DNA from: a virus
Reading direction: 5' to 3' (one strand)
Virus record (IMG/VR): IMGVR_UViG_3300025704_002294
Span: 1-64,000 of that record
DNA: 64,000 nucleotides
Part shown: one piece after another, positions 25,782 through 46,691 of the stretch
How positions within the stretch are numbered: position 1 is the first letter of the stretch
How the letters are laid out: the number at the start of each line of letters is the position of its first letter
Program-made: the position numbers and the translations under genes
The notes under the pieces: model-generated
Seen by the model: only the letters and a program-made list of their open reading frames with translations
Database searches by the model: none
Told to the model about the DNA's origin: nothing

Positions 25782-26051
25782 GTGGCCAAGCATAGAAGCA
25801 TATTAGAAGAATTGAATAAAATTTCAGTCGACAAAAGCAAAGATTACGTTGTTGAAAACCGTGCAGAGCATGTTATAGCAAGTGCTATCAACTTGTTAGA
25901 GCAAATCGACAGAAACTATACATTAGAAGAATCAAAGAACTTAACTAATAGGCTTATAAACAGCATAAAGCACCGTGACCCTTCAAAGTTTTCCAGAGGT
26001 ATTAAAAAGATTATCAAGGAAAATTTGAAGGAGCAATCGAGTGAAGATTGA
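25782..26051 (+). CDS. Conserved hypothetical protein
   Basis: TAAATA at 25746 and GGAG SD before a GTG start. Confidence 0.65.
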   Translation: MAKHRSILEELNKISVDKSKDYVVENRAEHVIASAINLLEQIDRNYTLEESKNLTNRLINSIKHRDPSKFSRGIKKIIKENLKEQSSED

Positions 26052-29054: not shown

Positions 29055-30187
29055 TGAATACTATGACATTAGATCAGATGATATCAAAGTTAAAAAAAGA
29101 TATGGATAAAACTGGAACTGGTAATAATTTTCATCCAGATTGGCTTGGCTGGGTAAGTCAAAATAAAGTTTTTAAATTAAAAAATATTAATATAGACTCT
29201 GTATCTCCTGCAGATGGTTGGCAAGGAAATAAAGATAACATAGATAACATGTTTACGAGTAATTTAAGTGATGCTCCTATCATTGTAGTTCATAAAAATG
29301 GCGGCATTATTGATGGCAATCATAGACATCAAGCATTAAAGAAACAAGGTGCTAAAACAATACAAGCCTATGTGGGCGAAGGTAAAATGGATTTAACATT
29401 AGTAAATCAAGAAATATCAGAAGCAAGGTTGTATAGAACAACCAATGGCTTTAAAAATCTAACAGGTCGCGACATAGCAAACCTTTTATATCTACATACA
29501 TTATCTTTATACATGATGTTACAAGACGACAGCAGTGAAAAATATGCAGTTGCATACGCAAAGCAAACATCACAGTATGGGTATTTTTCTTTGATGCGAA
29601 CACATGGCACTGACATTTACATGTTAGCATACGCAACTAAGAATCCAGATAACAGATATATTTCGTTTAAGAATAATAGACAAAGCAGAGAGTTCTTAGA
29701 CAAATTAAGATTTAACGAAAGACAGTTTCATGCCTTTATATCAAAAATGGGCAGACGTGCAGATAAAAGAAATGAAGCACTATCTTTCTTTATGCGATTA
29801 GAAAATCAATTGAAAATTACAGATTCTAGATATAAAAGTTATAGACGAATGGTGCTAAGTTGGGGCAAATTAAGATATAGTTCAAAACAACTAGTATTAA
29901 CAAAACTTACCCAAGAAATTAGACGTTTAGGAAGAGGAAGCGAACTAATGACTCCTATGAGTAATATGGTTAAAGATCGTGGATTAAAAGTTTCTTCAGA
30001 CTATAAAGAACCTAGAACTAGTTTAACTAGAAGAGTTGCAACAGCGGCCGCAGGTGCAGTAGCAGGAAGATATCTAGGAAAGAAAATTGCACAGAAGACA
30101 GGAGCCAATGTTGATAAATATAAGAAAGCAGGAACAGGAATCGGTGCAATAGCAGGTTACTGGGCAGGTGGACGTAATAAGCAATGA
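29051..30187 (+). CDS. ParB/Srx-like domain fused to a conserved phage protein
   Basis: PIIVV...IIDGNHRHQA; second module MDLTLVNQEISEARLYR starts at ATG 29387; glycine-zipper C-terminus. Confidence 0.6.
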   Translation: MMNTMTLDQMISKLKKDMDKTGTGNNFHPDWLGWVSQNKVFKLKNINIDSVSPADGWQGNKDNIDNMFTSNLSDAPIIVVHKNGGIIDGNHRHQALKKQGAKTIQAYVGEGKMDLTLVNQEISEARLYRTTNGFKNLTGRDIANLLYLHTLSLYMMLQDDSSEKYAVAYAKQTSQYGYFSLMRTHGTDIYMLAYATKNPDNRYISFKNNRQSREFLDKLRFNERQFHAFISKMGRRADKRNEALSFFMRLENQLKITDSRYKSYRRMVLSWGKLRYSSKQLVLTKLTQEIRRLGRGSELMTPMSNMVKDRGLKVSSDYKEPRTSLTRRVATAAAGAVAGRYLGKKIAQKTGANVDKYKKAGTGIGAIAGYWAGGRNKQ

Positions 30188-30819
30188 AAATAAAAGATTT
30201 TATAACAGAAAATACACCAGACTCAGTAAAGTCTGACTCAAATAAAGTTGCAGACTTAGTTAGATCTGGGCAAGATATCAATTTGGCCGTAGATACATAT
30301 AGAAATATTCATAGTGGACAATTAGATTATGACGCGGCTTTTTCTAAAGCATCTCAATCTAGATCAGGCTCTAACGAGCCTACTTCAGTAGGCAATACCG
30401 CCGCTATGAATAAGAAAGAAATAGATGCCCTAGTTAGTAAGCAAGTTCAAGATAAATTAAATAAAAACGCCACTGCTAAAAAAGGATTAGGCGGTGAAAT
30501 ACAAAAAGTAAAAGTTGAACCTTCGAGAAGTGAAGAGATGCCAGGTCAATATGTTACAGATCCAAAAACAGGTGCTTTAGTTCCTTCTAAACGTGCTTTT
30601 AGAGGCAATCAATACACAGGAGGAATACCAGGTCCTACTAAAGCAATTCAGAAAGCAAAAGACATTATAGATGATCCTTTATCTTTTATTACTAATCCTT
30701 TAGGTGCAACTGATACAGACGATGCTATAACTAAAGGCTCAGACCTTGGCAGAAGACTATTTACACCCAGAACGGGAATTAAGAAGAGCTCTAAATTATC
30801 TATCCGGTCTCCGCAGTAA
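30184..30819 (+). CDS. Hypothetical internal-head-type protein
   Basis: MKIKDFITE is a close match to the T4 CTS pattern. Confidence 0.55.
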   Translation: MKIKDFITENTPDSVKSDSNKVADLVRSGQDINLAVDTYRNIHSGQLDYDAAFSKASQSRSGSNEPTSVGNTAAMNKKEIDALVSKQVQDKLNKNATAKKGLGGEIQKVKVEPSRSEEMPGQYVTDPKTGALVPSKRAFRGNQYTGGIPGPTKAIQKAKDIIDDPLSFITNPLGATDTDDAITKGSDLGRRLFTPRTGIKKSSKLSIRSPQ

Positions 30820-30905
30820 ACTCCAAAATTTAAGACTATTATTTTATTATTTTTGATAAATAAATGTAATAGAGTGTTTTAACGAACACAAAAAAGGAGA
30901 TTAAA

Positions 30906-31250
30906 ATGGCACAATCAAAAGGAAATGGAGCCGGTGTTGCCCAGTTTGTAACTGGAACATTAGTTTCAAATCATAATTTACAATCAGTCCTAATTGACAC
31001 AGGTGCAAACCTGCAAACAGAAGATGATGCAACAAGAGAAGCAGTAGAAAGAGCATTAGGTTTTATACAACCACTTATGTATGTTATACCATCAGCAAGT
31101 AATGGTGAAATACATGCTATAGTTGATGCAAGTCAATTTGACGCGGCGTCTTTACAGAAACAAATCAGAGCAATTGGCACTGACGATGTAAACAGTTATA
31201 ACTTTGCAACTGCAACTGTAACAGCAGGAACAGGAATGGTTATTAGTTAA
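30906..31250 (+). CDS. Small virion structural protein
   Basis: Own TAAATA (30857), strong SD and terminator; A/G/T-rich. Confidence 0.65.
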   Translation: MAQSKGNGAGVAQFVTGTLVSNHNLQSVLIDTGANLQTEDDATREAVERALGFIQPLMYVIPSASNGEIHAIVDASQFDAASLQKQIRAIGTDDVNSYNFATATVTAGTGMVIS

Positions 31251-31267
31251 TTTTAAATTAATTTAAG

Positions 31268-31299
31268 AAAAAATGGCGGTTTTAACTGCCATTTTTTTT
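31268..31299 (+). terminator. Rho-independent terminator
   Basis: ATGGCGGTT/AACTGCCAT stem followed by a T run; flanking A run. Confidence 0.8.
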
Positions 31300-31379
31300 G
31301 GGTTTTTTGATAAATATTATTAACAACGCATCATTAGACACTTCGGTGAAGAATTTAATGATCAAAAAGGAGATTAAAA

Positions 31380-31649
31380 ATGGCACAAACGGATAGAAGA
31401 GCGGCGGCAAGCGGCGAGTTTATTGGTAAGGACGTATTCCTTAAAAGTTTCCAACAACAATCAGGAAACATTTCAGCAACTCAACTTACTTCATTAGTAA
31501 GCACAGTTCAAAGTTTAAACCTTTCAATTTTAAAAATAGGTAGTTTTACAGCAGGAACTTCAGACACAGTTAAAATGATTGTTGAAGGTGCAGACAACTT
31601 AGCAAACGGTGACATAGCGGCACACGTTATTGCTGACGTATCGTTCTAA
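31380..31649 (+). CDS. Small virion structural protein
   Basis: Own TAAATA (31311), SD context near-identical to the 30906 gene, and a terminator. Confidence 0.65.
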   Translation: MAQTDRRAAASGEFIGKDVFLKSFQQQSGNISATQLTSLVSTVQSLNLSILKIGSFTAGTSDTVKMIVEGADNLANGDIAAHVIADVSF

Positions 31650-31667
31650 GTTTTTATAACTTAATTT

Positions 31668-31695
31668 AAAAGCACTCTTCGGAGTGCTTTTTTTT
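31668..31695 (+). terminator. Rho-independent terminator with C(UUCG)G tetraloop
   Basis: GCACTC-TTCG-GAGTGC followed by T8. Confidence 0.9.
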
Positions 31696-31747
31696 GGCCC
31701 CATGGTCGACAACTTCTGATAAATAGTGTAATATACAGGAGACACAC

Positions 31748-32152
31748 ATGAGTTTAACAAGAAGTGGCGCAATGGGTAGTTCTGAAGTTGTTTCAGGCAA
31801 CATAGAATTTTTTACATTGTTTACAATGTTAGACATTACACAAACAGGCGATTACAATGACAACAGCCAAAAAGATTTCGAAAGTGTTGTCCAAGTAATA
31901 GGATTAAGAGCAATGCCTGTAGTGATGAATGAACCCGTAGAACTTAGCGGTTCTGGGGCATTTGTTTTAGAAAATTATGGAGCACCAACATTAACAGGAG
32001 CAGGTTGGATATTTAAATTTGCTTTTGAAAGAGAAGGAGTGCATACTATAACTACTTTGACAGATGAATTAAACGGAATAGTATTGAATAGTGGAACAAT
32101 TGATACTAAAATTTCAGTAAATATGGAATTTACTAAACAAGATTTATTATAA
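31748..32152 (+). CDS. Probable virion protein
   Basis: TAAATA at 31720 and AGGAG SD. Confidence 0.6.
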   Translation: MSLTRSGAMGSSEVVSGNIEFFTLFTMLDITQTGDYNDNSQKDFESVVQVIGLRAMPVVMNEPVELSGSGAFVLENYGAPTLTGAGWIFKFAFEREGVHTITTLTDELNGIVLNSGTIDTKISVNMEFTKQDLL

Positions 32153-32162
32153 GAGATAAACG

Positions 32163-32402
32163 ATGCCAAGAAAATCAGAACCAGATAAAAACATAAAACC
32201 TTATGTTGAGTCAGGTAATATAGAAGCACATATTATTGCTGACATGCTAAGAATAGAAAGCATTACAGCAGAGTTACGAGAGTTTAAAGAAACAACAAAA
32301 AGCAGATTAGACAAATTAGAAAGTTGGATAATTGCTATCGTTGGATTAACATTTACTTCGTTGGTTAGTATTATAATAGGAATAGTAATTAATTTAATAT
32401 GA
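32163..32402 (+). CDS. Coiled-coil protein with a C-terminal TM helix
   Basis: Heptad segment followed by WIIAIVGLTFTSLVSIIIGIVI. Confidence 0.6.
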   Translation: MPRKSEPDKNIKPYVESGNIEAHIIADMLRIESITAELREFKETTKSRLDKLESWIIAIVGLTFTSLVSIIIGIVINLI

Positions 32403-32680
32403 TTTTAGAAGAAATAACAAAAGATATAATAGTCGAAAACAGAATGGTCTGGCGTAAGATGGGCAACAAAGTTGTCCGTGCTGTTCGATGCACATCTGGC
32501 AGACGTAAAGGTCGTGTTGTTTCTAAATCGCAACAATGTAGTGCGCCTATTAATATGAAAAAGCGAATGACTATTAAAAAGACAAGAGCAAAAATGGGCG
32601 GAAGAATTGCCAGAAAAGCACAAAGAACTAAACGTATGAATCCTGCTAGTCGAAGAGTAAGATCATTGAATAAGAGATGA
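32399..32680 (+). CDS. Highly basic protein with an acidic CTS-like propeptide
   Basis: MILEEITKDIIVE followed by an R/K-rich body with RCTSG.RKGRVV. Confidence 0.65.
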   Translation: MILEEITKDIIVENRMVWRKMGNKVVRAVRCTSGRRKGRVVSKSQQCSAPINMKKRMTIKKTRAKMGGRIARKAQRTKRMNPASRRVRSLNKR

Positions 32681-32683
32681 TAA

Positions 32684-35600
32684 ATGAAGTTTACTGAAGT
32701 AAAAACATTAGAACATTTATTGAAAGAATACGGAATGTCTAGTTCTGGTTCGCCAACACCTTCCGGGCAACAGCAGTCTGGTAATTTTATAAAAAAAGTT
32801 GCAGGAGATATAGCCAAAAAAGTTGGAGCAAAAGCAAGTTCGGTTGGGCAATCAATGACACAGGCAATAAAAGGAACAGACAGCAAAACAACTCAAAGGA
32901 TAAAAAGTATAGTTCCTCAAAGAGGAGGCAAGATATCTGCAAGTCCTACAATAGGAGGTCAGAAAAACACTCCAGATTCTGTGATTAAAACAAAAGCAGG
33001 AGAAGTAGAAGCAGGTGCAGACATATATGATCAGTATGGTAATTATACAGGCAAAATTGATTCTCCATTAGGAGATAATAAAGCCGGTGGCCCTGAAAAA
33101 ATAGCAATATTAAACAAACAAAACGATTATGAAATCATAGATCCTAATGATGACTTATTTGTATCAAATCCACAAGCAAACGAAGGGAAACTATCTAAAT
33201 TAGCCAAACGCAAAAGCAAACATTCAAGAATAAAAACACTTAGAGGTAAAATTAAAAAATTATCTAAAAAAAGATTAAAAGAAGCAGATCCTAAGTTATT
33301 TGAAATAAATTTTAACAGACAAAATTTAGCAAGACAAAGTTTAGACGCACCTGTGAAATGCGGCTTTGAAGCAGAAACATTTTTCTATAATGTAGATAGT
33401 AGAGGTTCTTCTGACCATATAGACAACATGAGCATCAGTGAAATTGAATACCAATATGGTGATATGCCAGACCAAGTATGGGAAGACTTTGAAGATTGGT
33501 TGTATACTAAAGGACAAGACGAATACCTAGATGACATTATATCTGATAAAGTAGAAGAAGTCAGAGAAGATGAAGACTATCTAAATGACTTTATAGATAG
33601 TGGGGCAGGACCAAGTTCAGAAGCAATCGAAATATACAAAAAAGATTTTGAAGAAAACGATCCAAAAGAATACGAAAACCGTGAGGAAGATGGTTGGGAC
33701 TATATGAACTGGGTCAGAGAATATGTAGAAGAAGAATACGAAGATGAGTATTTGGCTTGGTTAAAAAAAGACGTTGCAGACGGTGATCTAGACGATGAGG
33801 CCAGAGAAGCCGCAAGAGATGATTATAGTGTAGAAGATTGGATATACGACAACTACAGTTACATGAGCAGTTTCCTTGATGATTATGGTTATGAGTATAA
33901 TAGTAGCAGTGAAGGCAATGTTGAAGGTGTTGCAGATGAGTTATACAACTGGATAAAAGATAATAGTAAATTTACAGACTATCCGGAAATAGGTGAGTAT
34001 GACTCCACTAATACCACAACTGCTTGGTCAGTAGAAACTGATAGCAGTATAGAAGCCGATGAAGGAGCAGGTGCAGAATTAATTTCGCCAGTATTTGATT
34101 CACCTAGAAAAATGCTTACAGAAATGAAAAGTTTATTTGACTGGAGTGAAAAAAACTTTGGCACAAACAACTCTACAGGACTACATGTTACTATGAGTTG
34201 GCAAGGTGAAAAAAGAGATTTAGTAAAAACAGACGATGATGAATTTTGGGGAGATGAGGCATCAGAACCAAACAAATTAAAGATGGCATTGCTATTAGGT
34301 GATGAATACTTACTTGCAGAGTTTGGTAGATTGCGTAACAGTTACACAAAAAGTCAATATCAAAATGTATTAAAATATGCAGAAGGCATGAAACGTGGTG
34401 ATGCAAAAAGTTTTGAAGCATTTGAGAAAGAACTTGCTAAAGGCATAGACCCTGGTAAGTTTAACAGTATAAATTTTAAAGGCGAGACTGATAAAGACTC
34501 AGGAAATAACCTTATAGAGTTTAGAATTGCCGGCGGTGTAGACTATAACACAATGTATGATAAAGTTGTTAAAGCATGTGTGAGATATGCTACTGTAATG
34601 AAAGCAGGATATAGTAAAGATGCTTTTAGACCAGAATATGTTAAAGCAGTATTTAGATTATTGCGTAAGTCACAGGAAATAGATCCTAAAAAATTAAAAA
34701 ATTTAGAAGTAGTTAATCACGAAGTAATAGATGCCGCCAAGAGCATTGTAGGCAAAAAAGATTACTTTGATGTAATTAAATTTCTAAGTGCCAGTGTTGA
34801 GTATTTACAAAACTATGAAAAATTAAGTAGTCCAGATGCAGATAAAATATGGAAGCAGGAAATAAAAGATTTCGAAAAAGGTACTGGTACTAAAGTAGAA
34901 ATAGAAGAAGAAACAATCAAAGGATATGTACAGCCTAACAGTATGTCACCAAGCAAGAGAGCGGCAGGCGAATTAGACAAAGCACAAGATAGATTTGGAT
35001 CAGCAGTAACATTATTAGCAAAAGACATAGCAGACGGTAATAACAGAGCACCTGTTACTGCTAAAAACATTGCGTCGTTTAGAAAGTTTGCCAAAGAATT
35101 ACAACTAAACAGTGATAGCATGGAAACACTGGTTTTTTCAAGTATGGAGAATCATAACATTGAAGGTTCTGACAAAGACAAAGTATTAATATTACAAAAA
35201 GGAATAAACACTTTATTCAAGCAAGACATAATTAAAAACCCAGAATATTTATCTCCGCAAGATGTAGACCGCATTGCCAGTAAAATGTGGCAGTTCTATC
35301 AATCAGACGATAGCAAAGATAATGTCAAATTAGATAAACTTGCAGACTTACTGGTTGTTTTAACCCCTGCAAACAAAAAAATAGATGTCGAAAACACATT
35401 AAGAGAATTATCTCATGAAAGACAAGAAAATAGTTTTGTTGCTAAACTGAAAGGCCGTGGATGGAATGTAAGAAACGAGTTATTAAAAAGCAATAGAATT
35501 ACCACAAAAGATTCAGCACAAGAATTATTAAAATTCTTAGAACCATATCAAGGTTACAAACATCCAACAAGCAGAGATCATCATGTTAATATTAAAAGTG

Positions 35601-38600
35601 ATGACAAATATTCAGACGTATTCCAGATGAGGCTCACACAGAGATTAAGAGACAGGTTAGATCATTTGAAAGATCTAGAAAGGGAAGACAAAGAAAAATT
35701 TGTAACTATTGCTAAACAAGTAAGCAAATTAGGATTAGAATTATTGGAAGGCTTAAAACCTAGACCAGATCTTTGGGCCGAAGATGAAAATGGATACACA
35801 CAAATCAACCGTGGCTCCGATGGAGAATCAAACTTGGCTTCGCATAGTAGTTTAGAACGTTGGAACGATGTAATGGACAGGCTTGTAAAAGCAGACAGTG
35901 AAATAGAGGCAGATGAACAAACATTTAATTTGCCTGCTCTTATAGATGATTATGTAGTAGGATCTATGCATATGGATAGATATTTTGCTTGGAAAGAAAA
36001 CAACGGGCCTGAGCAAGGTGCTGTTCTAAGACAATTACATAAAGAAAGATTTGCGGCAATAAAAAAATTCTTATCAGGATTTGATAAAATATTCCAGAAA
36101 GAAGGATTTGTAAATCTTAAACAAGAAATACAAGCAAAAAATACATTAGATAGAAGAAATAGAGACTTTGAAAAGAATGTCAGAGACAACGCAAAAGCAA
36201 AACTTAATATACCAAGTCACAGTTGGGTGTATATAGACCGAGACTTTTTTGATACTATCACAGATGAAGACTATGACGACAGAGAAGCATATTTAGATAG
36301 CAATTTAGATCATTTTAACGACAAAGTAAACCAGAGTAAAGTTTATGTTATACCTTCCAGTCACTGGAGTGATGCCGAAGATGCCACAAACGGTTTAGAA
36401 CTTATAGACACTTTTGAAAAAAATAAAAACTATTATCACACTTGGCGTAAAAAGGGTTATAAAAAAATAGTAAATAGATTCAACAACAAATATGGTTATA
36501 GTTGGAAGGACTTAAATGTCAAAGAAGCATTCATTCAAGGCGATGGTGATGTATACCACAAATTAAAAAATATCGGTATTGAAGTCACTCACAAAGGCGA
36601 CAGCAGAAAAGGTGCACCTGGACAAGACGATTTATTCCCAGATGAAGAAACACAAAATCCCAAAAGCGGTGAACCACTAAACAGAAGCAGTGGTATAAGT
36701 TGGGAAAATATGGATGATGAGGCAGAGCAAAAACGTTTTGATGCATTTGATTGGGAACAGTACCCAGCAAAAATGAAAGATGTAGTTGCTAAAGAAATGG
36801 CCAACAAACAAAGCAGTGGTGGTAGTTTTAAGGTAGCATTAGATAATATACTTAAAAAAGTACTTGACGGCGATGTAGGTATAGACAAAGACGATCTAGG
36901 CAAACCCTTAGACAAGATGGCTATAGCGGCTGGTATTGAACCCGACAATGGTGGTTCCTCAAATGGCATAGCAGGTGAAACAGATTGGGGCAATTTAGCA
37001 GACCATTTAGGAATAGAACGTGGCGTAAATGACCAGGGTGTAAACTTATTGAGAAAAGTATATCAACAGTTTGATGGCGACCACAACTGGAGACCTGCTG
37101 AAACCGACGAGAACGGCAAAAATGTAATTGGATTAGCAAGATGGGGTGCCGCAGTAAGAGATGCAGAAAAATATATCAGAGACAACTACAATGTGAGTGG
37201 TGGTAACTATTTTAGAAAAGATGCAGACGGTAATGATGACGATGATGTAAGCGGAGTATACGGAAGTTCAGATTGGACAAATACAGATTACGATAAAGCC
37301 AGGAAACACAGATTGTTTAATATTATGATGCAACAGGGAATGCAGAATTACTTACCAAAAGGCGAAGTAAATAAATTGGTAGCATTTTTAAACAATCCTC
37401 AGCAAGACACCAACTTTAAGAAAGAGGTTTTAGCAATACTTAGACTTAATGGACCTTTTGATACGTTTATGGGTGCCGTAAATGCGGCAAAAGAAATTTC
37501 ACAAGAAAGTATCTTTACCAAGTTTGATAAACTGCCTTTACAAGAACAGTTGCGTATATTACACGAATCAAATGTATTAGAAAAATTTACAAGAAATGAA
37601 AATACAATAAATACTAATATGAAAAAGTTTAACGAAGGCGAAGAAAGAAGTATTATTGCTAACAGTTGTGTTGAAAAATTAGTAGATGAGTTTAGTGGAA
37701 GAGAAAATCAATTTGCAAACAAAGATGATTTAGAATATGCAATATACCAAGCACTAGAAGACCTAGATGTAGAAGATTGTGTAGACCCAGAGATGGAAGT
37801 AGGCGGACAACCAATTGGGCACTTTGCTAGTGGCAGAGTAATTGATTGTTGCAGTAGCAGTGACATTATATATGATGTTATGGCTCATATGGACGAAACA
37901 CAAATAGGTGAAGCAAAAAAACCAAAAATGCCAAAGCAGAATAATCCAGTAGCAAAGAACAGCAAAAACATGCCAGGTGCTGGCGCACACAAATCACCAA
38001 AAGATTACGATAGAAAAAAAATTAAAGCAGATATCCGCAAAGAATTAGATGACAGTACCTATGTAAATAATATTATGCCTAGTGTTTTTGAAAGATTTGA
38101 AAAATTACCAATACAAAAACAATTAGAATTATTGAACACACCTATTGTTGAGGGTTATTTTAAAAATTTAGATACTATAGACAAAGAACAGAAAAGACTA
38201 GGAGTAGGAAAATATAATAAAGTAAGTAAAAGTGTTAAAAAGCCTGCCGGATCATATAATAAAGAACAGCATATAAAAAATACTTACAACAAGTTTAAAA
38301 CACAACATGGCGAAGTAAAGGCACAGGCTATGTTAAATAAAATGATCGACCGTGGATACTTTGACAAATCAAAAACAGAAAGTTTGTTAGGCATAGATGT
38401 ATTATTAAGAACTAAAAGACTAACAGAAAACATGCCTAACAATAACAAACTTGCTATACTAAAAAAATTATTATCAAAACATTTTCCAGTTGGTAATTTA
38501 GATATGCAATTCCAGGCATATTTAGCATTACCAATACCAAGGATGATGACAGCATTTAGCCAATTAAAAAGCATAGAAGGGCCAGAAGCATGTGGTAGAG

Positions 38601-39748
38601 ACATCCTAATGCATTTTGCAAAAAATAGATTACCAGATGCAGAAGTAAAACAACTTAATCTCAATGAAAGTTATATCAAAGAGGATGCAACAGAAGACAG
38701 ATTAAACAGCATAATGACTGCATTAGAAAAAAATCCAAATTTTGCTAGACGAGTTTACAAAATGTTAAAACTTGATAAAGAGTCTGCAGACCATTTGGAT
38801 ATTGAAGATAGACTTAAAAATAATGACACTGGTAAGGAAAACGATCATAGAATTAATAAGAATATTATGAGACAATTAGTTTTATCACTTGAACAACTAG
38901 ATCATGATTTTGACGAAATAGATGCATTTGTTGAAACTTACGGACATGCAGATTATGTAAACACAGAATTATTAAACAAGTCTGGTGTATTTAAAATTTC
39001 AGACATGTTTGTCGGAACTGATGCAGTATCTAAAGAATTTATAGATGATCTTTATGAAAAATTATTTGACTTTAGAATTAATATATCTGGATCAAACAGA
39101 GGGCCAGGTGAACTTGGATTGTGTTTACTGTCACCTAATGTAGAACTTGCTTCGGTAGGTGATATCAAAGTTAATGGCGAAGAAATAGAAGTTAAAGGTG
39201 AGGTATCGTCAGGTGGCGGTAGAATGGTTAACGGTATTGACGACTTTAAGTTTAGTGGATTAGCACAGGTCAAATCACAACTAGTACCATTTTATGAAAA
39301 GCATGATATTCCAGAAGAATTAAGAATTTACAATTTAAAAGGTGCAGTTGGCGGAGGCCGTAATCAGGGTCAGGCTCATATACTAGATCAAGCACAACAA
39401 TTAGAACAAGTAAAACAAGGTGTAGGTGCTGAATTTTTAAAATTAATTGTTAGCACATATCAATTTGTTATTGACTCAGAAGAAGAAGCAGAATTAACAA
39501 GTTCATTTATGAATATGGATAAGACAAGGTTCTTAACACTTGTAGGATTAATGTCATTTAAAAATTATGCATACATGTTAAACAAAAAAGGATTCAATAG
39601 ATTAATATTTTTAAATTGGAGATATGATAAAGTAGTAAATTGTACAACAGAAGAATTTCCAAAATACAGTGAGCATTTAGCATTTACAAGTTTAGATATG
39701 GCAGACAGTCAAAATGGTCCAGCAGTACAGGTATCAGTGTTAAAATGA
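32684..39748 (+). CDS. 2354-aa polyprotein: amidoligase (COOH-NH2 ligase) domain, multiple modules, C-terminal PD-(D/E)xK-like domain
   Basis: CGFEAE, DSSI, GAELISP, TNNSTGLHVTMS, KFNSIN and IEFRIAGG (approx 33350-34620); GPGE...GDIKVNGEEIEVKG near 39100-39200. Confidence 0.75.
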   Translation: MKFTEVKTLEHLLKEYGMSSSGSPTPSGQQQSGNFIKKVAGDIAKKVGAKASSVGQSMTQAIKGTDSKTTQRIKSIVPQRGGKISASPTIGGQKNTPDSVIKTKAGEVEAGADIYDQYGNYTGKIDSPLGDNKAGGPEKIAILNKQNDYEIIDPNDDLFVSNPQANEGKLSKLAKRKSKHSRIKTLRGKIKKLSKKRLKEADPKLFEINFNRQNLARQSLDAPVKCGFEAETFFYNVDSRGSSDHIDNMSISEIEYQYGDMPDQVWEDFEDWLYTKGQDEYLDDIISDKVEEVREDEDYLNDFIDSGAGPSSEAIEIYKKDFEENDPKEYENREEDGWDYMNWVREYVEEEYEDEYLAWLKKDVADGDLDDEAREAARDDYSVEDWIYDNYSYMSSFLDDYGYEYNSSSEGNVEGVADELYNWIKDNSKFTDYPEIGEYDSTNTTTAWSVETDSSIEADEGAGAELISPVFDSPRKMLTEMKSLFDWSEKNFGTNNSTGLHVTMSWQGEKRDLVKTDDDEFWGDEASEPNKLKMALLLGDEYLLAEFGRLRNSYTKSQYQNVLKYAEGMKRGDAKSFEAFEKELAKGIDPGKFNSINFKGETDKDSGNNLIEFRIAGGVDYNTMYDKVVKACVRYATVMKAGYSKDAFRPEYVKAVFRLLRKSQEIDPKKLKNLEVVNHEVIDAAKSIVGKKDYFDVIKFLSASVEYLQNYEKLSSPDADKIWKQEIKDFEKGTGTKVEIEEETIKGYVQPNSMSPSKRAAGELDKAQDRFGSAVTLLAKDIADGNNRAPVTAKNIASFRKFAKELQLNSDSMETLVFSSMENHNIEGSDKDKVLILQKGINTLFKQDIIKNPEYLSPQDVDRIASKMWQFYQSDDSKDNVKLDKLADLLVVLTPANKKIDVENTLRELSHERQENSFVAKLKGRGWNVRNELLKSNRITTKDSAQELLKFLEPYQGYKHPTSRDHHVNIKSDDKYSDVFQMRLTQRLRDRLDHLKDLEREDKEKFVTIAKQVSKLGLELLEGLKPRPDLWAEDENGYTQINRGSDGESNLASHSSLERWNDVMDRLVKADSEIEADEQTFNLPALIDDYVVGSMHMDRYFAWKENNGPEQGAVLRQLHKERFAAIKKFLSGFDKIFQKEGFVNLKQEIQAKNTLDRRNRDFEKNVRDNAKAKLNIPSHSWVYIDRDFFDTITDEDYDDREAYLDSNLDHFNDKVNQSKVYVIPSSHWSDAEDATNGLELIDTFEKNKNYYHTWRKKGYKKIVNRFNNKYGYSWKDLNVKEAFIQGDGDVYHKLKNIGIEVTHKGDSRKGAPGQDDLFPDEETQNPKSGEPLNRSSGISWENMDDEAEQKRFDAFDWEQYPAKMKDVVAKEMANKQSSGGSFKVALDNILKKVLDGDVGIDKDDLGKPLDKMAIAAGIEPDNGGSSNGIAGETDWGNLADHLGIERGVNDQGVNLLRKVYQQFDGDHNWRPAETDENGKNVIGLARWGAAVRDAEKYIRDNYNVSGGNYFRKDADGNDDDDVSGVYGSSDWTNTDYDKARKHRLFNIMMQQGMQNYLPKGEVNKLVAFLNNPQQDTNFKKEVLAILRLNGPFDTFMGAVNAAKEISQESIFTKFDKLPLQEQLRILHESNVLEKFTRNENTINTNMKKFNEGEERSIIANSCVEKLVDEFSGRENQFANKDDLEYAIYQALEDLDVEDCVDPEMEVGGQPIGHFASGRVIDCCSSSDIIYDVMAHMDETQIGEAKKPKMPKQNNPVAKNSKNMPGAGAHKSPKDYDRKKIKADIRKELDDSTYVNNIMPSVFERFEKLPIQKQLELLNTPIVEGYFKNLDTIDKEQKRLGVGKYNKVSKSVKKPAGSYNKEQHIKNTYNKFKTQHGEVKAQAMLNKMIDRGYFDKSKTESLLGIDVLLRTKRLTENMPNNNKLAILKKLLSKHFPVGNLDMQFQAYLALPIPRMMTAFSQLKSIEGPEACGRDILMHFAKNRLPDAEVKQLNLNESYIKEDATEDRLNSIMTALEKNPNFARRVYKMLKLDKESADHLDIEDRLKNNDTGKENDHRINKNIMRQLVLSLEQLDHDFDEIDAFVETYGHADYVNTELLNKSGVFKISDMFVGTDAVSKEFIDDLYEKLFDFRINISGSNRGPGELGLCLLSPNVELASVGDIKVNGEEIEVKGEVSSGGGRMVNGIDDFKFSGLAQVKSQLVPFYEKHDIPEELRIYNLKGAVGGGRNQGQAHILDQAQQLEQVKQGVGAEFLKLIVSTYQFVIDSEEEAELTSSFMNMDKTRFLTLVGLMSFKNYAYMLNKKGFNRLIFLNWRYDKVVNCTTEEFPKYSEHLAFTSLDMADSQNGPAVQVSVLK
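37608..37621 (+). promoter_or_regulatory. Internal late-type promoter plus in-frame ATG inside the giant ORF
   Basis: TAAATACTAATATG is identical to the terL start context; ATG 37619 is codon 1646. Confidence 0.5.
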
Positions 39749-41775
39749 GATTATACGAAGTAACTAAACCTGGACAATGCCCAAGAACAAAAGCAACCGA
39801 ATGCAGTTGCGAAAGGCTAAGGCAATTATCAGAAGCAGAAAAGCCTATAAAAGCAGTTGCAGTACTAGAACACGGCGATGCTAAAGGCATAATTAATTTT
39901 GTACAAAAGCCAGGTAAAGCAACAATTATAAGCGGTACTATAAGCGGCTTAACAGAAGGCTTACATGGATTTCACATACACGAATTTGGCGATCTCAGTG
40001 ATGGATGCGATAGTGCAGGCGGTCATTATAATCCGCATGGTGTCGATCATGGCGATGTAGATAATGGTCATATCGGCGACTTAGGAAATATAGAAGCCAA
40101 CAGCAAAGGTGTAGCAGAATTTAAAATAAAATCCAAAACAATTCAATTACAAGGTGCCACAAGCATAGTTGGTAGAGCAGTTGTTGTACACCAAGACGAA
40201 GACGACTTAGGCAAAGGCGGCGATGAGGAAAGTTTAAAAACAGGCAACGCAGGTGATAGAGCAGGATGCGGTGTAATAAAATTATCTGAATTAACACAAT
40301 CAGCAATAGCAGATTTAGATAAAAACATTAGCGACAAGCATTTTAGTAGAAATGAAATGCCGCAAGTCAAAGAACCAGATTTAATAGATAATGATATACC
40401 TTATAAAAAAGGCAAAATAAGTGTAACAAATATTAAACCAGTTCAAACAGATAGAGTACCAGGATTAGCACAAAAAGTTGCAGAAGACTTTCACGGTAAA
40501 GACAAGCCTTTTATACTAGATAAAAACAATTACTTGGTTAATGGTCATCATAGATATGATGCGGCTAGATTATTAGGCATAGAAAAAGTAGATGCAATAA
40601 AAGTAAATGTGCCTATTGAATTATTAATGAAACAATTTAGCCATACCACTAGTGATACAATGGTCGAACATCTAAGCGACGAGGCATCAACGCCAGAAAT
40701 ACACAACAAAGCATTGCAAATGGCCAAGGATGCATATAGAAAGTCTAATAAACAAGTGTCATTTACTGCATTATATGATAAGGCACTAAATAAATTACAA
40801 CCCGGAAACCCACCAACAAAACTAAGTCCTGGTTTCAAGTTAGGTAAACTTCCACATGAAGAAGTAGAGTCAGTTATTCATCAATGGGTCAATCAAGAAG
40901 ATCACATAGAATTAAGTAATGGCATGCATGTACTCAGTGGTGAGAATCACGGTTATGATGATAATGTAGCACTAATAGTTGATGCTGATTATAAAATATT
41001 GGACCATGATGATGACATTGTTGAACTAATGCAACAATTCACAGCACAAGAAATAAACCCAAGCATTGTAGAAAACTTTGACGATGGTAAAAAGAAAGGC
41101 AAAAGCAGACCAGGTAGAGTAAAACGTAGTGGAGCAAGTTGCAATGGTAGTGTTACAGCATTACGCAAACGTGCAAAAAACAGCAGTGGTGAAAAAGCAA
41201 AAATGTATCATTGGTGTGCTAATATGAAGTCTGGCAAAAAGAAAACAAATGAAGATATGGAGAATTTATCTCCTAGTGCAAAACTGGCAGGCGAATATAT
41301 TGACAGTGACGTTAAGAGTGGCAAAATTAAAAACCTAGATGACCTCAAAAGATATATAGTAGAATTACGACTTTCAAGGATAATAGATCATGCCGAAGAT
41401 GCCAGAGCACTTTGGATACATCACTTGACCGTCAATCCACACAATTTACCAGATGCAGTCAACGAATCAGCATTTGAAAATTTAAAATTACCAACTTGGA
41501 TGTCACATACCAGTTTAGAAAAATTATTTGCACAAGAGTACGGTCCTAGATACGGTGACTATGTTGCACATATGGACCTAGACAGTGACGACGATTTGGC
41601 AATGAATGCCAGTGGCATGGGTGATATGGCTTTTGAAATGGTTAAAGCAAATGATATCAAAGTTATGCAAAAATTCTTAGCACAAATGCCTGTGCAGTTT
41701 ACAGTAGATGACCTTAGATTAGACGACGGTATTCAAGTTTGGCATCTAGTTCAACAAAACAAAACTGTACACTAA
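39745..41775 (+). CDS. sodC: Polyprotein: Cu/Zn superoxide dismutase + ParB-like domain + further modules
   Basis: HGFHIHEFGD, GGHYNP, HIGDLGN, GRAVVVH and GNAGDRAGCGVI; ParB-like LVNGHHRYDAA; basic NFDDGKKKG module. Confidence 0.85.
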   Translation: MRLYEVTKPGQCPRTKATECSCERLRQLSEAEKPIKAVAVLEHGDAKGIINFVQKPGKATIISGTISGLTEGLHGFHIHEFGDLSDGCDSAGGHYNPHGVDHGDVDNGHIGDLGNIEANSKGVAEFKIKSKTIQLQGATSIVGRAVVVHQDEDDLGKGGDEESLKTGNAGDRAGCGVIKLSELTQSAIADLDKNISDKHFSRNEMPQVKEPDLIDNDIPYKKGKISVTNIKPVQTDRVPGLAQKVAEDFHGKDKPFILDKNNYLVNGHHRYDAARLLGIEKVDAIKVNVPIELLMKQFSHTTSDTMVEHLSDEASTPEIHNKALQMAKDAYRKSNKQVSFTALYDKALNKLQPGNPPTKLSPGFKLGKLPHEEVESVIHQWVNQEDHIELSNGMHVLSGENHGYDDNVALIVDADYKILDHDDDIVELMQQFTAQEINPSIVENFDDGKKKGKSRPGRVKRSGASCNGSVTALRKRAKNSSGEKAKMYHWCANMKSGKKKTNEDMENLSPSAKLAGEYIDSDVKSGKIKNLDDLKRYIVELRLSRIIDHAEDARALWIHHLTVNPHNLPDAVNESAFENLKLPTWMSHTSLEKLFAQEYGPRYGDYVAHMDLDSDDDLAMNASGMGDMAFEMVKANDIKVMQKFLAQMPVQFTVDDLRLDDGIQVWHLVQQNKTVH

Positions 41776-41795
41776 ACATTCAATAAATATGTACT

Positions 41796-43253
41796 ATGCA
41801 AATAGTACATCATCCTAATTGGTATAGAGATTTTTTAGAAGACATGGCCCGCAGAGGCCCAACACATCTTAGAGATGCCAGTCGACATTGTCCTATTGAC
41901 AATACCATTAATAGTTTTACACACTTCCTGGGAGATAAAAGTTTTATCAAACCTAGAGATCAGATTGATGAATCAAAAAGTTTCTTTTACATGATTAGTA
42001 TTGATTGCTGTGACGATGACAGTATTGCAGAACTAATTTACTATGGCAGAGAACTTGTAAATCAAAAATTAGTAAGACCTTACATTACACAAGAAGCAAT
42101 AGATGATTTAAATAACTTTCACAACTGCGGATTAATAATAGAAAATGCGGCTGAAGGGCATGCCAGTGATAAACTGTTTGACGCATTGCATATATTAGTT
42201 AGCCAAGTAGGTATACCATTTGAAAAAACTTATTACACAAATAGCACTCAAAATTTAAGAGAAATGTATGACAAATATTTACTTAATAAACCTTATGCTA
42301 CAATAGACAAAATTAAAATGTTTAATTGCGGCGGGTGGAATGAATTGGTATGTCAACAAATGCTCGATGACAATTATCAGATTGAAAAAGAGGAAGACAT
42401 GTGCGAGTTTAGAGCAGAAAATCTTATTGATTCTGATGAAATGTGGAGTTTATCTGTGGAATGCTCTAAGCCATTAGAACATATTAGAGAGGATGTTAAT
42501 AAACCGCATTTATTCTTGTATAAACATATGAATGCAAAACGTGGGTTTAGAACATTGTTTTTAGCATTACTTCACAAAGAACATTTACTTGACAATAATT
42601 TATACAGCACACCTGAAGAATGGAGAGGTACGCAAAGTAGTGCTGTAAAATATATTAATTCTATAACATGGGACAGAAATTGGGCAGAAGGTTTCGAAGA
42701 ATTGTACCCTACATTATTAAATGTTAGAGGCAAAATACCAACATACATTGATAGAGAACACAACCATTTAGACTTTGATCCTAACACAAATTTTAGTAGC
42801 GATAATTATATGTACTACAATGCTAGAAGAAACTGTGATATTGAAATTGTAGGCGAAAGTGAATTTGAAGGTTCTATATTTTTAACAGAAAAGTTTCTCA
42901 AAGCAATTATATTTAAACAACCTTTTATAATACTAGGCTCTACTGGCAGTTGGGAAAAGATTAAACAAATGGGTTATATATCATACGAGCCATATATTAA
43001 AGAATCTTATGATAAAAACGATGACGAACTACACCGTATGAATGAAATAATTCAAGAAATCAAACGATTAACAGACTTAAAACGCGATAAACAAGCATGG
43101 AAGGATTGGCTACAAGGTGTGAATAGAATTGCTGTACAAAATTATAATATCTATTTGAACAACCTAATACGTCGTGTAAGAATGAAAACACTAGATGATT
43201 ATGTAGCAGGCACAGGTGAATTAGGAATTCCTATACAAGAGTTAGGCGATTAA
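41796..43253 (+). CDS. Putative glycosyltransferase-like protein (FLTEK family)
   Basis: IVGES, FLTEKFLKAI..KQPFI and E.YD motifs; paralog of 10621..11841. Confidence 0.5.
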   Translation: MQIVHHPNWYRDFLEDMARRGPTHLRDASRHCPIDNTINSFTHFLGDKSFIKPRDQIDESKSFFYMISIDCCDDDSIAELIYYGRELVNQKLVRPYITQEAIDDLNNFHNCGLIIENAAEGHASDKLFDALHILVSQVGIPFEKTYYTNSTQNLREMYDKYLLNKPYATIDKIKMFNCGGWNELVCQQMLDDNYQIEKEEDMCEFRAENLIDSDEMWSLSVECSKPLEHIREDVNKPHLFLYKHMNAKRGFRTLFLALLHKEHLLDNNLYSTPEEWRGTQSSAVKYINSITWDRNWAEGFEELYPTLLNVRGKIPTYIDREHNHLDFDPNTNFSSDNYMYYNARRNCDIEIVGESEFEGSIFLTEKFLKAIIFKQPFIILGSTGSWEKIKQMGYISYEPYIKESYDKNDDELHRMNEIIQEIKRLTDLKRDKQAWKDWLQGVNRIAVQNYNIYLNNLIRRVRMKTLDDYVAGTGELGIPIQELGD

Positions 43254-43267
43254 AGATAAATACATAT

Positions 43268-43423
43268 ATGCGTATAAAAGAGGTTGACATAAACATAGAT
43301 TCGTTCTATAATAGTATCAATGAAACAGTAGCAGGTGCTATTGGTGGCGTGGCAATGCCTCTATTCAAAGAACCAATAAAACGCAAGCCTACTAAGAAAA
43401 AGAAGAAAAAGAAAAATGCGTAG
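43268..43423 (+). CDS. 51-aa basic peptide with CTS-like leader (not in ORF track)
   Basis: MRIKEVDINIDSFYNSINETVAGAIGGVAMPLFKEPIKRKPTKKKKKKKNA; TAAATA-N5-ATG. Confidence 0.7.
   Translation: MRIKEVDINIDSFYNSINETVAGAIGGVAMPLFKEPIKRKPTKKKKKKKNA
43284..43312 (+). promoter_or_regulatory. Perfect sigma70 consensus promoter embedded in a CDS
   Basis: TTGACA-17-TATAAT. Confidence 0.6.
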
Positions 43424-43637
43424 CATAGACAGTAAATACGGATTAACATACATAATGGGCGAAGAAATCTCATTTTGTGAAACATTAAAAGAGTTTGGAA
43501 CATATTACAAAGGCAAAATGAGCGAAAGGCAAATTCAGATTGCTGAAGATTTAAGAAAAAGAGAGATAATTAAACTAGTAAAACTCAAAGATGGACAAGA
43601 CGGATATAGACTATATGCAACAAGTAAACGAATCTGA
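43416..43637 (+). CDS. Hypothetical protein
   Basis: Operonic ORF with overlapping starts and stops. Confidence 0.55.
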   Translation: MRSIDSKYGLTYIMGEEISFCETLKEFGTYYKGKMSERQIQIAEDLRKREIIKLVKLKDGQDGYRLYATSKRI

Positions 43638-44034
43638 TTTAAAATCACAACTTCAAGAAGTACTAAGTGGTATTATTGCTACTTTAGATATATATGAAGT
43701 CGTTGACAATGGCGATACTTACGATATAGTAAATCTTAAAAACAATGAAATAGTATGCGAAGAAATACATTTAAACATTGTTGCAAATATTGTTGCCGCG
43801 GCAATGAATACTGGCGAAGATCTAAATACGTCTACTATAGATAAGATATTAAAAACAGAAAAATATGCTGTATCTAAAATGGTAGAAGTCAAAATATACG
43901 AAGAGTTGACGGAAAATTCTACAAATTTTGACAGAATGGCAATTTATGAAACCAAACTTACAGAGGCAGAACACAAATCTAGTAATGCAATTAACAATTT
44001 GCTGTCACAATGTCAACTGTTAATCTCCTTATAA
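43591..44034 (+). CDS. Hypothetical protein
   Basis: Operonic ORF; exact start uncertain. Confidence 0.55.
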   Translation: MDKTDIDYMQQVNESDLKSQLQEVLSGIIATLDIYEVVDNGDTYDIVNLKNNEIVCEEIHLNIVANIVAAAMNTGEDLNTSTIDKILKTEKYAVSKMVEVKIYEELTENSTNFDRMAIYETKLTEAEHKSSNAINNLLSQCQLLISL

Positions 44035-44075
44035 AAGTACTTCTTTGATAAATATAACTATTAGAAGGGACTACT

Positions 44076-45275
44076 ATGGAAGTAAAACATTTAAATTCAG
44101 ATAACTTAACTAGATTAGGTAAACTTCAGAATTACCTAACAGAAAATTATGACATCAACGTCAACAAAGTTTTACCTAAGCAGAAGTTAGAACAAGCATA
44201 TCAAAATGTTGAAAAAAGACTTGTAAATTTAAGAAATAAAAGTAACAAGTTTCAACAAGATCCTAACTATGGTATGAATATTATGGTTAGAGATGCATTA
44301 GGCATCATGATAAACGAAGGTCTATACTACGAAGGTGAAACATATCGCAGACTAATGGACGAACTGCATGAATACAGTTGCTCATTAGCAGAAAGTGGCG
44401 ACGACTACGATACTATAATGGACAGTTGCAGTAAAAAATATGAGGCCATGCCTGCTAGATATCCAAAAGATATGATACTAGCCGCTATTGCAGAAAAAAT
44501 AATGCCTATGTTCGATGGCAGTATGCAAGAAGACATAGAAGACGAAATAATGGACGTTATTGACGAACCAGAAGTAAAAATTAATGTAGATAATTCAGAA
44601 GATATCCCTTCAAACTTCGAAAATGCTACGGAAGAAATGTTAGCAGAACTAATTGGTGATTATCTAGGAAAAGATAATTGGAAAGAATTTGCATTAGGCG
44701 AACTATTTTCAGAATTAGAAAGTGTTGATATAGAAAAAGCAAATAAGGTAGATAATATGGCAAAAAAATATGGAATAACAGACTTAAAAGAAATGAAGCA
44801 ATTTGAAACATTCTTAGATGATCTAGTAAGCGAGATGGTTGGAGATGACACAATTACTGAAGAAATTTCAGGTACTAGTGTTGAAGAAGCAGAAGTTGTT
44901 ATGGCGGCAAGAGCCTTAAGTAACGACATTCAAGACCACATTGAAAGAATCGGTAGAATGGCAAACGAAGATATACCTTCAATTGCTGATTCAATGGCAC
45001 ATGAATTTGGTGCACAAAAAGCCGCAGAATTCAAAAATCAAATGGAAGGATTACTAAGTTCTTTACTTGATGCTAACAAAAGTTCAAAAGAAGGTGTCGA
45101 CGCTCTTATTGGTACAATGACTGGAGAAGAATCAGCCGCACCAATGCCATCAGAAGATCCACTAGGTGGTGACATGATGGAACCAGCACTAGATGAACCA
45201 GTAGATGATTTTGCTGGTGCAGACGCAGAAGCAGGACCTGAAGAAGAACCTCTAGGTAGAGCAGAAAAGATTTAA
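44076..45275 (+). CDS. Acidic prohead core/scaffold-like protein
   Basis: TAAATA at 44049; acidic and helical; several [LI]xE sites; ends EEPLGRAEK. Confidence 0.5.
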   Translation: MEVKHLNSDNLTRLGKLQNYLTENYDINVNKVLPKQKLEQAYQNVEKRLVNLRNKSNKFQQDPNYGMNIMVRDALGIMINEGLYYEGETYRRLMDELHEYSCSLAESGDDYDTIMDSCSKKYEAMPARYPKDMILAAIAEKIMPMFDGSMQEDIEDEIMDVIDEPEVKINVDNSEDIPSNFENATEEMLAELIGDYLGKDNWKEFALGELFSELESVDIEKANKVDNMAKKYGITDLKEMKQFETFLDDLVSEMVGDDTITEEISGTSVEEAEVVMAARALSNDIQDHIERIGRMANEDIPSIADSMAHEFGAQKAAEFKNQMEGLLSSLLDANKSSKEGVDALIGTMTGEESAAPMPSEDPLGGDMMEPALDEPVDDFAGADAEAGPEEEPLGRAEKI

Positions 45276-45277
45276 TC

Positions 45278-45634
45278 ATGAGGTTTACGGACTTTGCACT
45301 CACAGAATCTGACATGAATGATGTTACATCAGACGTTAAGGAACTTGTTATTAACAAAATAGACGGTGGTGTGCAGTCTGCAAGTCTTGATGCATTTGTA
45401 GAAGAAGTAAACAATTTAGGTATTCCAATTTCAAAAGCAATGCTTAGATTAATTTTAGAGTCACCAGAGTTTGAAAACTTAATTGCAAACGTAGACAATT
45501 CAGAAATAGAATTTAATACACCTGGAAATGTGCCAGACGAAATGGTACCAGAACCAGAAGACATGGAAAATAATGTTTCTAACTTGGCAACATCGGCCGC
45601 TAACCAAGGCATAGGAGATGAACTAAATGTCTGA
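45278..45634 (+). CDS. Hypothetical head protein with CTS-like leader
   Basis: Starts MRFTDFALTE. Confidence 0.55.
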   Translation: MRFTDFALTESDMNDVTSDVKELVINKIDGGVQSASLDAFVEEVNNLGIPISKAMLRLILESPEFENLIANVDNSEIEFNTPGNVPDEMVPEPEDMENNVSNLATSAANQGIGDELNV

Positions 45635-46648: not shown

Positions 46649-46691
46649 CATACGTTTATCTGCAAAGTAAACAAAAAAGATAAATAGTTGT

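Follow-up and report, generated by a model that had tools for sequence, protein, structure and literature searches.

The stretch of DNA analysed here (the window, 64,000 nucleotides long) comprises positions 1 to 64,000 of IMG/VR virus record IMGVR_UViG_3300025704_002294. The full record spans 94.2 kb; its completeness is estimated at 26%, from which a genome size of about 360 kb follows. Within the window lies an open reading frame (ORF) of 676 amino acids (aa) in which a short leader and a Cu/Zn superoxide dismutase (SOD) are followed by a ParB-like domain and five further modules. An initial annotation, made from the sequence without database searches, had read this ORF as a polyprotein targeted to the virion, with the SOD as its first module. 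The features of the ORF are as follows.

39745..41775, plus strand: whole ORF (P0001), 676 aa, comprising leader, SOD, ParB-like domain, two unknown modules, basic module and two tail modules
39745..39834, plus strand: leader, aa 1-30, with a capsid-targeting-like start MRLYEV, the motif C-P-R-T-x4-C-x-C, and the end L-S-E before Ala31
39835..40290, plus strand: Cu/Zn SOD module of the SOD1 type, aa 31-182, with metal ligands, Arg and disulfide Cys pair, ending in K-L-S-E (Pfam, human SOD1 alignment and fold)
40291..40668, plus strand: linker and predicted ParB/Srx-fold domain, aa 183-308, with an NGHHR motif, ending in T-M-V-E (PHROG and fold)
40669..41073, plus strand: two unknown modules, aa 309-443, a helical hairpin (317-351) and an alpha/beta unit (371-442, WVNQ motif), ending in S-I-V-E
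41074..41244, plus strand: basic module, aa 444-500, NFDDGKKKGKSRPGRVK ... YHWCANMK
41245..41466, plus strand: helical tail module, aa 501-574, ending in A-V-N-E (weak helical matches, Z <=6)
41467..41772, plus strand: alpha/beta tail module, aa 575-676 (no significant match to a solved structure)

A SOD1-type enzyme and the modules that follow it

The SOD module matches Pfam family Sod_Cu (PF00080) across profile positions 2-133 of 133 (aa 47-178, 149.2 bits, E 1.2e-43; the curated cut-off is 28.9 bits). Among solved structures, aa 35-181 align end to end with residues 3-153 of human SOD1 (E 5e-46). In this alignment, the copper ligands H77, H79, H94 and H149 correspond to human H46, H48, H63 and H120, and the zinc ligands H94, H102, H109 and D112 to H63, H71, H80 and D83. 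Likewise, Arg172 corresponds to human Arg143, and the disulfide pair Cys88/Cys175 to Cys57-Cys146. The ligands, the Arg and the Cys pair are invariant or at least 90% conserved in sets of 14 and 54 homologs. When compared with human SOD1, the full-length AlphaFold model yields a Z score of 18.1 (root-mean-square deviation 2.4, 144 of 153 residues, 53% identity), and the Greek-key beta-barrel fold is thereby present in the model. Profile, alignment and fold all bear out the complete enzyme that the initial annotation had described.

Its choice of bacterial SodC as the comparison, however, needs correction. The closest named cellular proteins are SOD1 enzymes of corals, plants and insects (50-54% identity), which cover the SOD part of the ORF and not its first 30 residues, whereas bacterial Cu/Zn SOD-type structures among the matches listed are only 23-36% identical to the model. 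A viral enzyme, the Megavirus SOD, also matches (Z 16.1, 37% identity). Because of these identities and the 53% shared with human SOD1, we assign the module by sequence to the eukaryote-type SOD1 enzymes, with predicted SOD activity, and reject an origin from bacterial SodC. The protein is therefore not a SodC that has lost its signal peptide, although a signal peptide is indeed lacking, as had been noted: all 11-residue hydropathy windows in the first 27 positions are negative, the first 30 residues contain no hydrophobic stretch, and neither the N-terminal signal nor the lipoprotein signal of bacterial periplasmic SodC was found there.

Several homologs (L011, L013, L018, L021, L062, L065 and L067) carry runs of 9-12 lysines, encoded by poly-A tracts, before the SOD. 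These may be slippery or phase-variable starts.

The region behind the SOD (aa 183-308) matches PHROG ParB-like families at 3.6e-7. Its predicted fold, over aa 214-307, resembles the ParB-N domain of pNOB8 (5k5d, Z 8.6), sulfiredoxin (6ky4, Z 8.5), PadC (6ryk, Z 7.8) and KorB (8qa8, Z 7.2); these Z values lie near the caution line of the tool, and all of the matches come from one superfamily. The sequence N-G-H-H-R (aa 266-270) is invariant in 14 homologs and corresponds to the Gly-x-x-Arg type motif of the nucleotide pocket. Pfam ParBc (PF02195) stays below threshold, the region has no Pfam match at E values up to 5, and a sequence search of the PDB with it returned no match, such that only the fold search found these structures. 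Since PHROG families match and no Pfam model passes, we file the domain from its modelled fold at the level of the ParB/Srx superfamily only, and the ParB-like domain of the initial annotation stands in this form.

None of the non-SOD modules, each searched separately against Pfam at E values up to 5, gave a match, and the last five have no Pfam, PDB or ESM Atlas match. ESM Atlas look-ups with aa 309-500 and 501-676 returned nothing usable, and a Foldseek comparison of the AlphaFold model of aa 309-676 (confidence score, pLDDT, of 64) with the PDB found none at E <=0.001. Among viral models, this region matches only two proteins from uncultured phages, which share part of it at 42% and 30% identity and carry a GNAT (acetyltransferase) and a deaminase domain, respectively. 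These proteins are further shuffled relatives and do not point to a known fold.

The basic module is the best-conserved piece of the chain. Its 57 residues carry a net charge of +15 and the conserved residues Cys466, His489 and Cys491, and it is near-invariant in 54 homologs. Between the record that contains the window (G000) and a related record, G001, its identity is 81%, versus 61% for the SOD. Many unrelated proteins carry the same module at their C-terminus, and almost all of them begin with the same type of leader; searched alone, the module has no match in cultured phages. It appears to be a common piece for binding DNA or for anchoring, with a charge that seems comparable to that of T4 internal proteins. 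This module and the unknown and tail modules lie where the initial annotation had placed them. In G001, where the SOD stands alone, the basic module instead ends a flavodoxin-like protein of 252 aa (163031-163789, minus strand; L040), whose C-terminal 58 residues are 81% identical to the copy in the window.

Glutamate joints and a shared leader

The modules meet at six tripeptides that end in Glu: L-S-E30 (in QLSE), L-S-E182 (in KLSE), M-V-E308, I-V-E443, T-N-E500 and V-N-E574, all of which are present as first described. Similar joints recur among the homologs. Every multi-module homolog has [LIVM]-x-E no more than about 12 residues past the SOD fold, and the joint after the ParB domain reads M-V-E, V-V-E, V-D-E or M-x-E. 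The joint ahead of the basic module is a conserved six-residue word. Across 38 distinct contexts of this joint, Glu occupies P1 in all 38, and Leu, Ile, Val or Met occupies P3 in 32, with unrelated modules upstream. In an unsupervised test, 30% of the breakpoints of all-against-all BLAST alignments fall within 3 residues of [LIVM]xE, compared with 13% (standard deviation 2%) of random positions. The control motifs [LIVM]xK, [LIVM]xD, [LIVM]xQ and [AGS]xE show no excess at these breakpoints. Judged from the sequences, the conservation of the joints goes beyond chance. In addition, the confidence of the AlphaFold (AF2) model drops below 50 at aa 1-31 (the leader), 308-311, 443-464, 497-503 and 569-580, which coincide with five of the six candidate cut sites. 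Module ends that carry [LIVM]-x-E thus coincide with predicted flexible linkers.

Between these joints, the modules change partners. More than 2000 longer and 5500 shorter homologs were found, nearly all in marine or aquatic metagenomes, and relatives turn up in at least 594 stretches of IMG/VR. A survey of module order, which the initial annotation had suggested, revealed at least 30 orders in 189 homologs. The commonest single form is a stand-alone leader and SOD of about 182-192 aa that ends at the equivalent of K-L-S-E182 or a few residues past it, and 40 of 92 stand-alone SODs end in Glu. At one locus (L019), the SOD is fused in frame, through N-V-Q-E, behind the giant protein that in the window is encoded by a separate 2354-aa ORF just upstream (32684-39748). 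Sequence comparison thus identifies the modules as independently shuffled units, and on this basis the modular build and the conserved Glu joints of the proposed polyprotein hold. A tblastn search of 50,697 phage records returned only the 33%-identical sodC of Acinetobacter phages and no close cultured relative, and megablast with the locus returned nothing.

The leader is likewise a recurrent element. Among 115 short homologs, 113 have the motif C-x-R-T-x(3-5)-C-x-C followed by [LIVM]xE, and 91 begin in a manner that resembles a capsid targeting sequence (CTS). Stand-alone homologs start with MKFKEF, MRALEF, MKITEL and similar sequences. In the T4 record, the internal proteins IPII and IPIII start with MKTYQEFIAE, and IPI with MKTFKEF..ITE. 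At L019, the Cys motif is kept with the SOD where the M-K/R start is lost. The C-x-C part of this motif appears to us reminiscent of the copper chaperone for SOD1 (CCS), and by this analogy the leader is possibly a cleavable built-in helper for the SOD. The CTS of T4 is a propeptide of 10-20 residues that suffices to load foreign proteins into the head and is removed by the protease gp21 after Glu (PMC9026906, PMC5694885).

We described the leader as a pattern (M; K, R or E; hydrophobic; any residue; E, D or H; hydrophobic) and counted the ORFs that begin with it. The pattern was set after the genome of the window had been viewed, and therefore it was applied unchanged to two other genomes, namely G001 and the Pseudomonas jumbo phage PA5oct. 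In the window genome, nine ORFs carry the pattern where 0.8 are expected; seven of these lie in one block of 18 ORFs (26-45.7 kb), and all nine have [LIVM]xE within 32 residues. G001 has four such ORFs (0.5 expected), all adjoining its SOD gene, and PA5oct has six (0.9 expected). Five of the six PA5oct proteins are annotated as detected in virions by ESI-MS/MS (electrospray ionization tandem mass spectrometry), including gp333, which is encoded between portal and protease. Virion mass spectrometry (MS) of PA5oct detected 93 of its 461 proteins (PMC7318152), and against this rate, five of six corresponds to a binomial p of about 0.002 by our own calculation.

Phage lineage and genomic setting

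The 94.2-kb record encodes a terminase, a gp32-like single-stranded DNA-binding protein, UvsX, helicases, a primase and ribonucleotide reductase, and the terminase is 57% identical to that of PA5oct. The DNA of the window comes from an uncultured jumbo phage of the PA5oct/Rak2-like, T4-related clade, of whose genome it is a fragment. In IMG/VR the record is labelled 'provirus', but the genes that it contains are those of part of a lytic-type jumbo phage related to T4.

The head genes of this lineage are seen in G001, a related record of 197 kb with syntenic core genes (53-70% identical) that also carries a SOD homolog. Its T4-type head module includes a Peptidase_S77 gene (4e-27) with an adjoining scaffold-like gene and a gp23-type capsid gene, whose product is 68% identical to the capsid protein of PA5oct. 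The PA5oct prohead protease also matches Peptidase_S77 (7e-25). The capsid protein of G001 has L-S-E aligned to L-T-E65 of T4 gp23, which we take to be the site at which gp21 cuts (Glu65/Ala66); in PA5oct the corresponding residues are L-V-E. As far as sequence can tell, the lineage has a prohead protease with the expected specificity, and the L-S-E of the capsid protein also stands on either side of the SOD.

A 94-aa ORF of G001 (160775-161059, minus strand; L091/L092) starts with MKINEIIIRRINNE and continues with QATAGATAAGN. This start copies the cut-site region of the capsid protein, where L-S-E is followed by QATAGATSAGN.

The surroundings of the SOD ORF are also shared with PA5oct.

25782..45634, plus strand: gene block between the DnaB helicase and the exonuclease, holding seven of the nine leader ORFs and syntenic with PA5oct gp259-gp245
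32684..39748, plus strand: upstream ORF of 2354 aa with the leader MKFTEV..LLKE, whose stop overlaps the SOD ATG; coupled translation would be allowed

Gene order is common to the window and PA5oct: primase and DnaB come first, then a small virion protein, the block, the exonuclease, two more genes and ribonucleotide reductase. The ORFs that start at 25782, 31748, 44076, 45627, 45932, 46692 and 48441 correspond to PA5oct gp259, gp250, gp247, gp245, gp244, gp243 and gp242, respectively. In PA5oct, 12 of the 15 genes of the block bear a virion MS note. The giant ORF and the SOD ORF, which overlap as ATGA, are placed between two genes orthologous to gp250 and gp247, both of which are virion-detected in PA5oct. 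PHROG families labelled 'virion structural protein' match the ORFs at 25782, 44076 and 2093, and the terminase gene lies 35 kb from the SOD ORF. As a whole, the 2354-aa ORF has no Pfam or PHROG match, and a weak partial match at 12-13% identity was found in Ralstonia and Agrobacterium jumbo phages only.

Two further genes of the block resemble known families. The ORF at 27798-29054 encodes a DUF6267 protein (Pfam, 1e-102) with the leader MRINEV..IICE, and its homologs in hundreds of T4-like cyanophages, in Pelagibacter phage HTVC008M and in Methylophilales phages mostly align from about residue 20, past the leader. A second ParB-like protein is encoded at 29051-30187 (weak ddrB-ParB Pfam match, E 0.0066; PHROG ParB-like, 1.5e-4).

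Short boxes of the form GATAAATA or AATAAATA precede several genes of the window. Those at 6405-6417, 46679-46691 and 41783-41795 lie 12-13 nucleotides before the starts at 6418, 46692 and 41796, and another (31719-31726) lies about 29 nucleotides before the start at 31748. Elsewhere in the window (17855-18952), a 365-aa ORF has an N-terminus, TSESVSQGHPDKVADLISD, that resembles S-adenosylmethionine synthetase; it matches phrog_1569 (2.6e-110), a family labelled as of unknown function. Past the window end, the record (G000) carries ORFs that resemble ClpX (88513-89751, zinc-finger N-terminus), glutaredoxin (68017-68244, CPYC) and ferredoxin (64641-64970), as judged from motifs only.

A proposed head-packaged precursor, its rivals and its relatives

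From these sequence comparisons, we consider that the SOD ORF probably encodes a head-packaged cargo precursor, which the prohead protease would cut into SOD, ParB-like, basic and other pieces. The chain would be made late, and its leader (M-R-L-Y-E-V ...) would act like a T4 capsid targeting sequence to bring it into the prohead core. There, a T4-type prohead protease would cut after Glu at L-S-E30, L-S-E182, M-V-E308, I-V-E443 and V-N-E574, and perhaps at T-N-E500. Among the products would be a SOD of 152 residues, with ends that match the ends of the cellular SOD1 enzymes, together with a ParB-like protein, a protamine-like basic peptide and other pieces. All of these would be retained with the DNA in the head and pass into the host alongside it, like the internal proteins and Alt of T4. 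After entry, the SOD would clear superoxide, either around the DNA or in the cell just infected, and the DNA would be bound by the ParB-like and basic pieces. Packaging, cutting and injection are steps that we infer. Virion targeting, as the initial annotation had proposed it for this chain, draws indirect support from the protease and the capsid L-S-E of the lineage, from the enrichment of the leader in three genomes, from its association with virion-detected proteins in PA5oct and from synteny with a run of PA5oct virion genes. The purposes that were suggested at the same time, namely to shield DNA from reactive oxygen species (ROS) in sunlit water or to buffer stress after injection, are guesses.

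Several observations weigh against the proposed packaging and cutting. The protease and capsid genes (PF03420, PF07068) are absent from the 94-kb, 26%-complete fragment that holds the window, an absence that in so incomplete a fragment is not informative in itself, and their presence in this phage is presumed from the related record. There is no enrichment of the T4 late box TATAAATA (8 matches versus 12 expected), none lies near the gene, and we have dropped this promoter as evidence; upstream of the gene there are only GATAAATA-like boxes at about 31719 and 25745. The leader pattern is short and degenerate, and for the window genome it is post hoc. The PA5oct MS list includes ribonucleotide reductase, which implies non-structural carry-over. 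At 30 residues, the leader is longer than most T4 CTSs, and its conserved Cys motif suggests a role besides targeting. Two of the candidate sites are also atypical, as K-L-S-E182 sits at a helix start outside the low-confidence linkers of the AF2 model and T-N-E500 lacks a hydrophobic P3. Finally, the SOD fusion is absent from the cultured phages among the 50,697 phage records.

The protein might instead be packaged and yet stay uncut between its modules, perhaps losing its leader only, and work as a single 'polyvalent' protein of several domains. In that case the Glu joints would be places of recombination, at which modules are swapped, and not protease sites; the six-residue word before the basic module could be put to this use. 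Precedents exist, in that phage polyvalent proteins are thought to be delivered as multi-domain chains, the virion RNA polymerase of N4 is packaged unprocessed (PMC5512222), and most T4 cargo loses short end propeptides only (PMC9026906, PMC5694885). However, a pure recombination joint leaves unexplained why a hydrophobic P3 is kept in the variable, non-homologous part upstream of the basic module. Moreover, the L-S-E on both sides of the SOD is the tripeptide found at the capsid cut-site position of G001, and many stand-alone SODs end in Glu. We regard this alternative as unlikely.

Somewhat more improbable is an arrangement in which the chain is not packaged at all, and acts in the cytoplasm as a multi-domain auxiliary enzyme that clears superoxide near replicating phage DNA. 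The leader would be a metal-handling or folding extension, and the Glu joints acidic linkers. Phage auxiliary genes for redox stress are common, no canonical late promoter was found, and the block lies between genes for replication and nucleotide metabolism. The Cys motif, which stays with the SOD at L019, also implies that part of the leader belongs to the enzyme. Nevertheless, unrelated neighbouring proteins share this type of leader, it marks virion proteins of PA5oct, and the flanking genes are orthologous to genes for virion proteins. In addition, the control motifs are not enriched at the joints. The basic C-terminal module occurs on many unrelated leader-bearing enzymes, for which a shared destination fits better than shared chemistry.

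That the ORF is an assembly or gene-calling artefact fusing unrelated genes can practically be dismissed, as the chimera envisaged in the initial annotation is not borne out: although modules of the ORF are found separately elsewhere, its frame is stop-free over its length, the identical 676-aa protein is encoded on 11 contigs and a near-identical one on 6, and full-length homologs (70-91% identity) occur on dozens more contigs from several sources, mostly with the same order of modules and in some cases with one internal module swapped.

A broader scheme, which we put forward as a doubtful extension of the cargo-precursor proposal, is that marine T4-related jumbo phages possess a programmable system of cargo loading. 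In this scheme, a short N-terminal tag, protease-cut Glu joints and the basic module would serve to pack the head with enzymes that can be exchanged for one another (SOD, ParB-like, acetyltransferase, deaminase, flavodoxin-like and others) and that are later injected. The SOD propeptide, with its C-x-C, would serve as a copper and disulfide helper like domain 3 of CCS, and with its aid a SOD1 of the eukaryote type could mature inside a bacterial cell before losing the propeptide.

If the chain is indeed packaged and cut, abundant ocean phages would deliver a ready-made antioxidant enzyme and DNA-binding proteins along with their genome. The principle of the T4 internal proteins would be extended from small single proteins to shuffled multi-enzyme precursors, and the virion SODs of giant eukaryotic viruses would gain a first counterpart in bacterial viruses. 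Superoxide would emerge as a hazard, or as a host weapon, at the time of DNA entry. The leader, the Glu joint and the basic module could also provide natural tags for loading foreign proteins into large phage heads. The presence of a eukaryote-type SOD1 in thousands of phage contigs represents notable gene flow between domains.

A literature search found no paper that combines 'superoxide dismutase' with 'capsid targeting sequence', and none on propeptide processing in PA5oct-like phages. Among known systems, the internal proteins of T4 (IPI, IPII, IPIII and Alt, with gp21) share with the SOD ORF a short leader of the form M-K/R-x-x-acidic-hydrophobic that ends in [LI]-x-E and is common to unrelated proteins of one phage. 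Both lineages have a gp21-family protease and a capsid L-x-E at the T4 cut position, and both cargo sets include a basic, presumably DNA-binding component. Unlike the single small proteins of T4, the SOD cargo is a seven-module chain with internal candidate cut sites, and it is known here from sequence alone. Its leader has 30 residues with a conserved three-Cys motif, and the chain holds a Cu/Zn SOD, a ParB-like domain and a conserved basic module with the role of a shared C-terminal part.

Polyvalent proteins (Iyer et al. 2017, PMC5512222) resemble the SOD chain in that several unrelated effector-type domains, including a ParB-family domain, occupy one phage polypeptide that is predicted to be delivered with the DNA. 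With SOD, a ParB-like domain and five further modules, the ORF contains at least two unrelated effector domains, as proteins of this group do. Of the hallmark domains of the published set, it shares the ParB-like domain alone, and no other Pfam family of that set was detected in it. The survey of these proteins contains no occurrence of superoxide dismutase or amidoligase, and P1 DdrB provides a precedent for a ParB domain linked to head cargo (PMC5512222). In contrast to these proteins, no MuF, portal or zincin-peptidase domain was found in the SOD ORF, and its processing would rely on a prohead protease at Glu joints, not on a built-in peptidase.

The Cu/Zn SODs of giant eukaryotic viruses (chlorovirus PBCV-1 and Megavirus chilensis) are likewise intact virus-encoded enzymes of the SOD1 type. 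These enzymes are active, and a role in detoxifying ROS at an early stage of infection has been ascribed to them (PMC10583209); lists of the proteins packaged in the virions of such viruses include SOD (PMC9405923). Here, however, the host is a bacterium and the virus a tailed phage with a T4-type head; the SOD is a module of a longer chain, and its packaging would use a propeptide and a protease.

In the giant phages phiKZ, 201phi2-1 and SPN3US, which have processed ejection and inner-body proteins, many head proteins are cut after Glu at short motifs, with several sites in some of them, and ejection carries them into the host (PMC5694885, PMC9026906). Their cut sites follow A/S/G-x-E, their propeptides are long, and their clade differs from the PA5oct/Rak2-like clade to which the window belongs. 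To our knowledge, no SOD is found among them. Set beside these systems, what is new here is a variant both of the T4 internal-protein and capsid-targeting system and of the polyvalent proteins.

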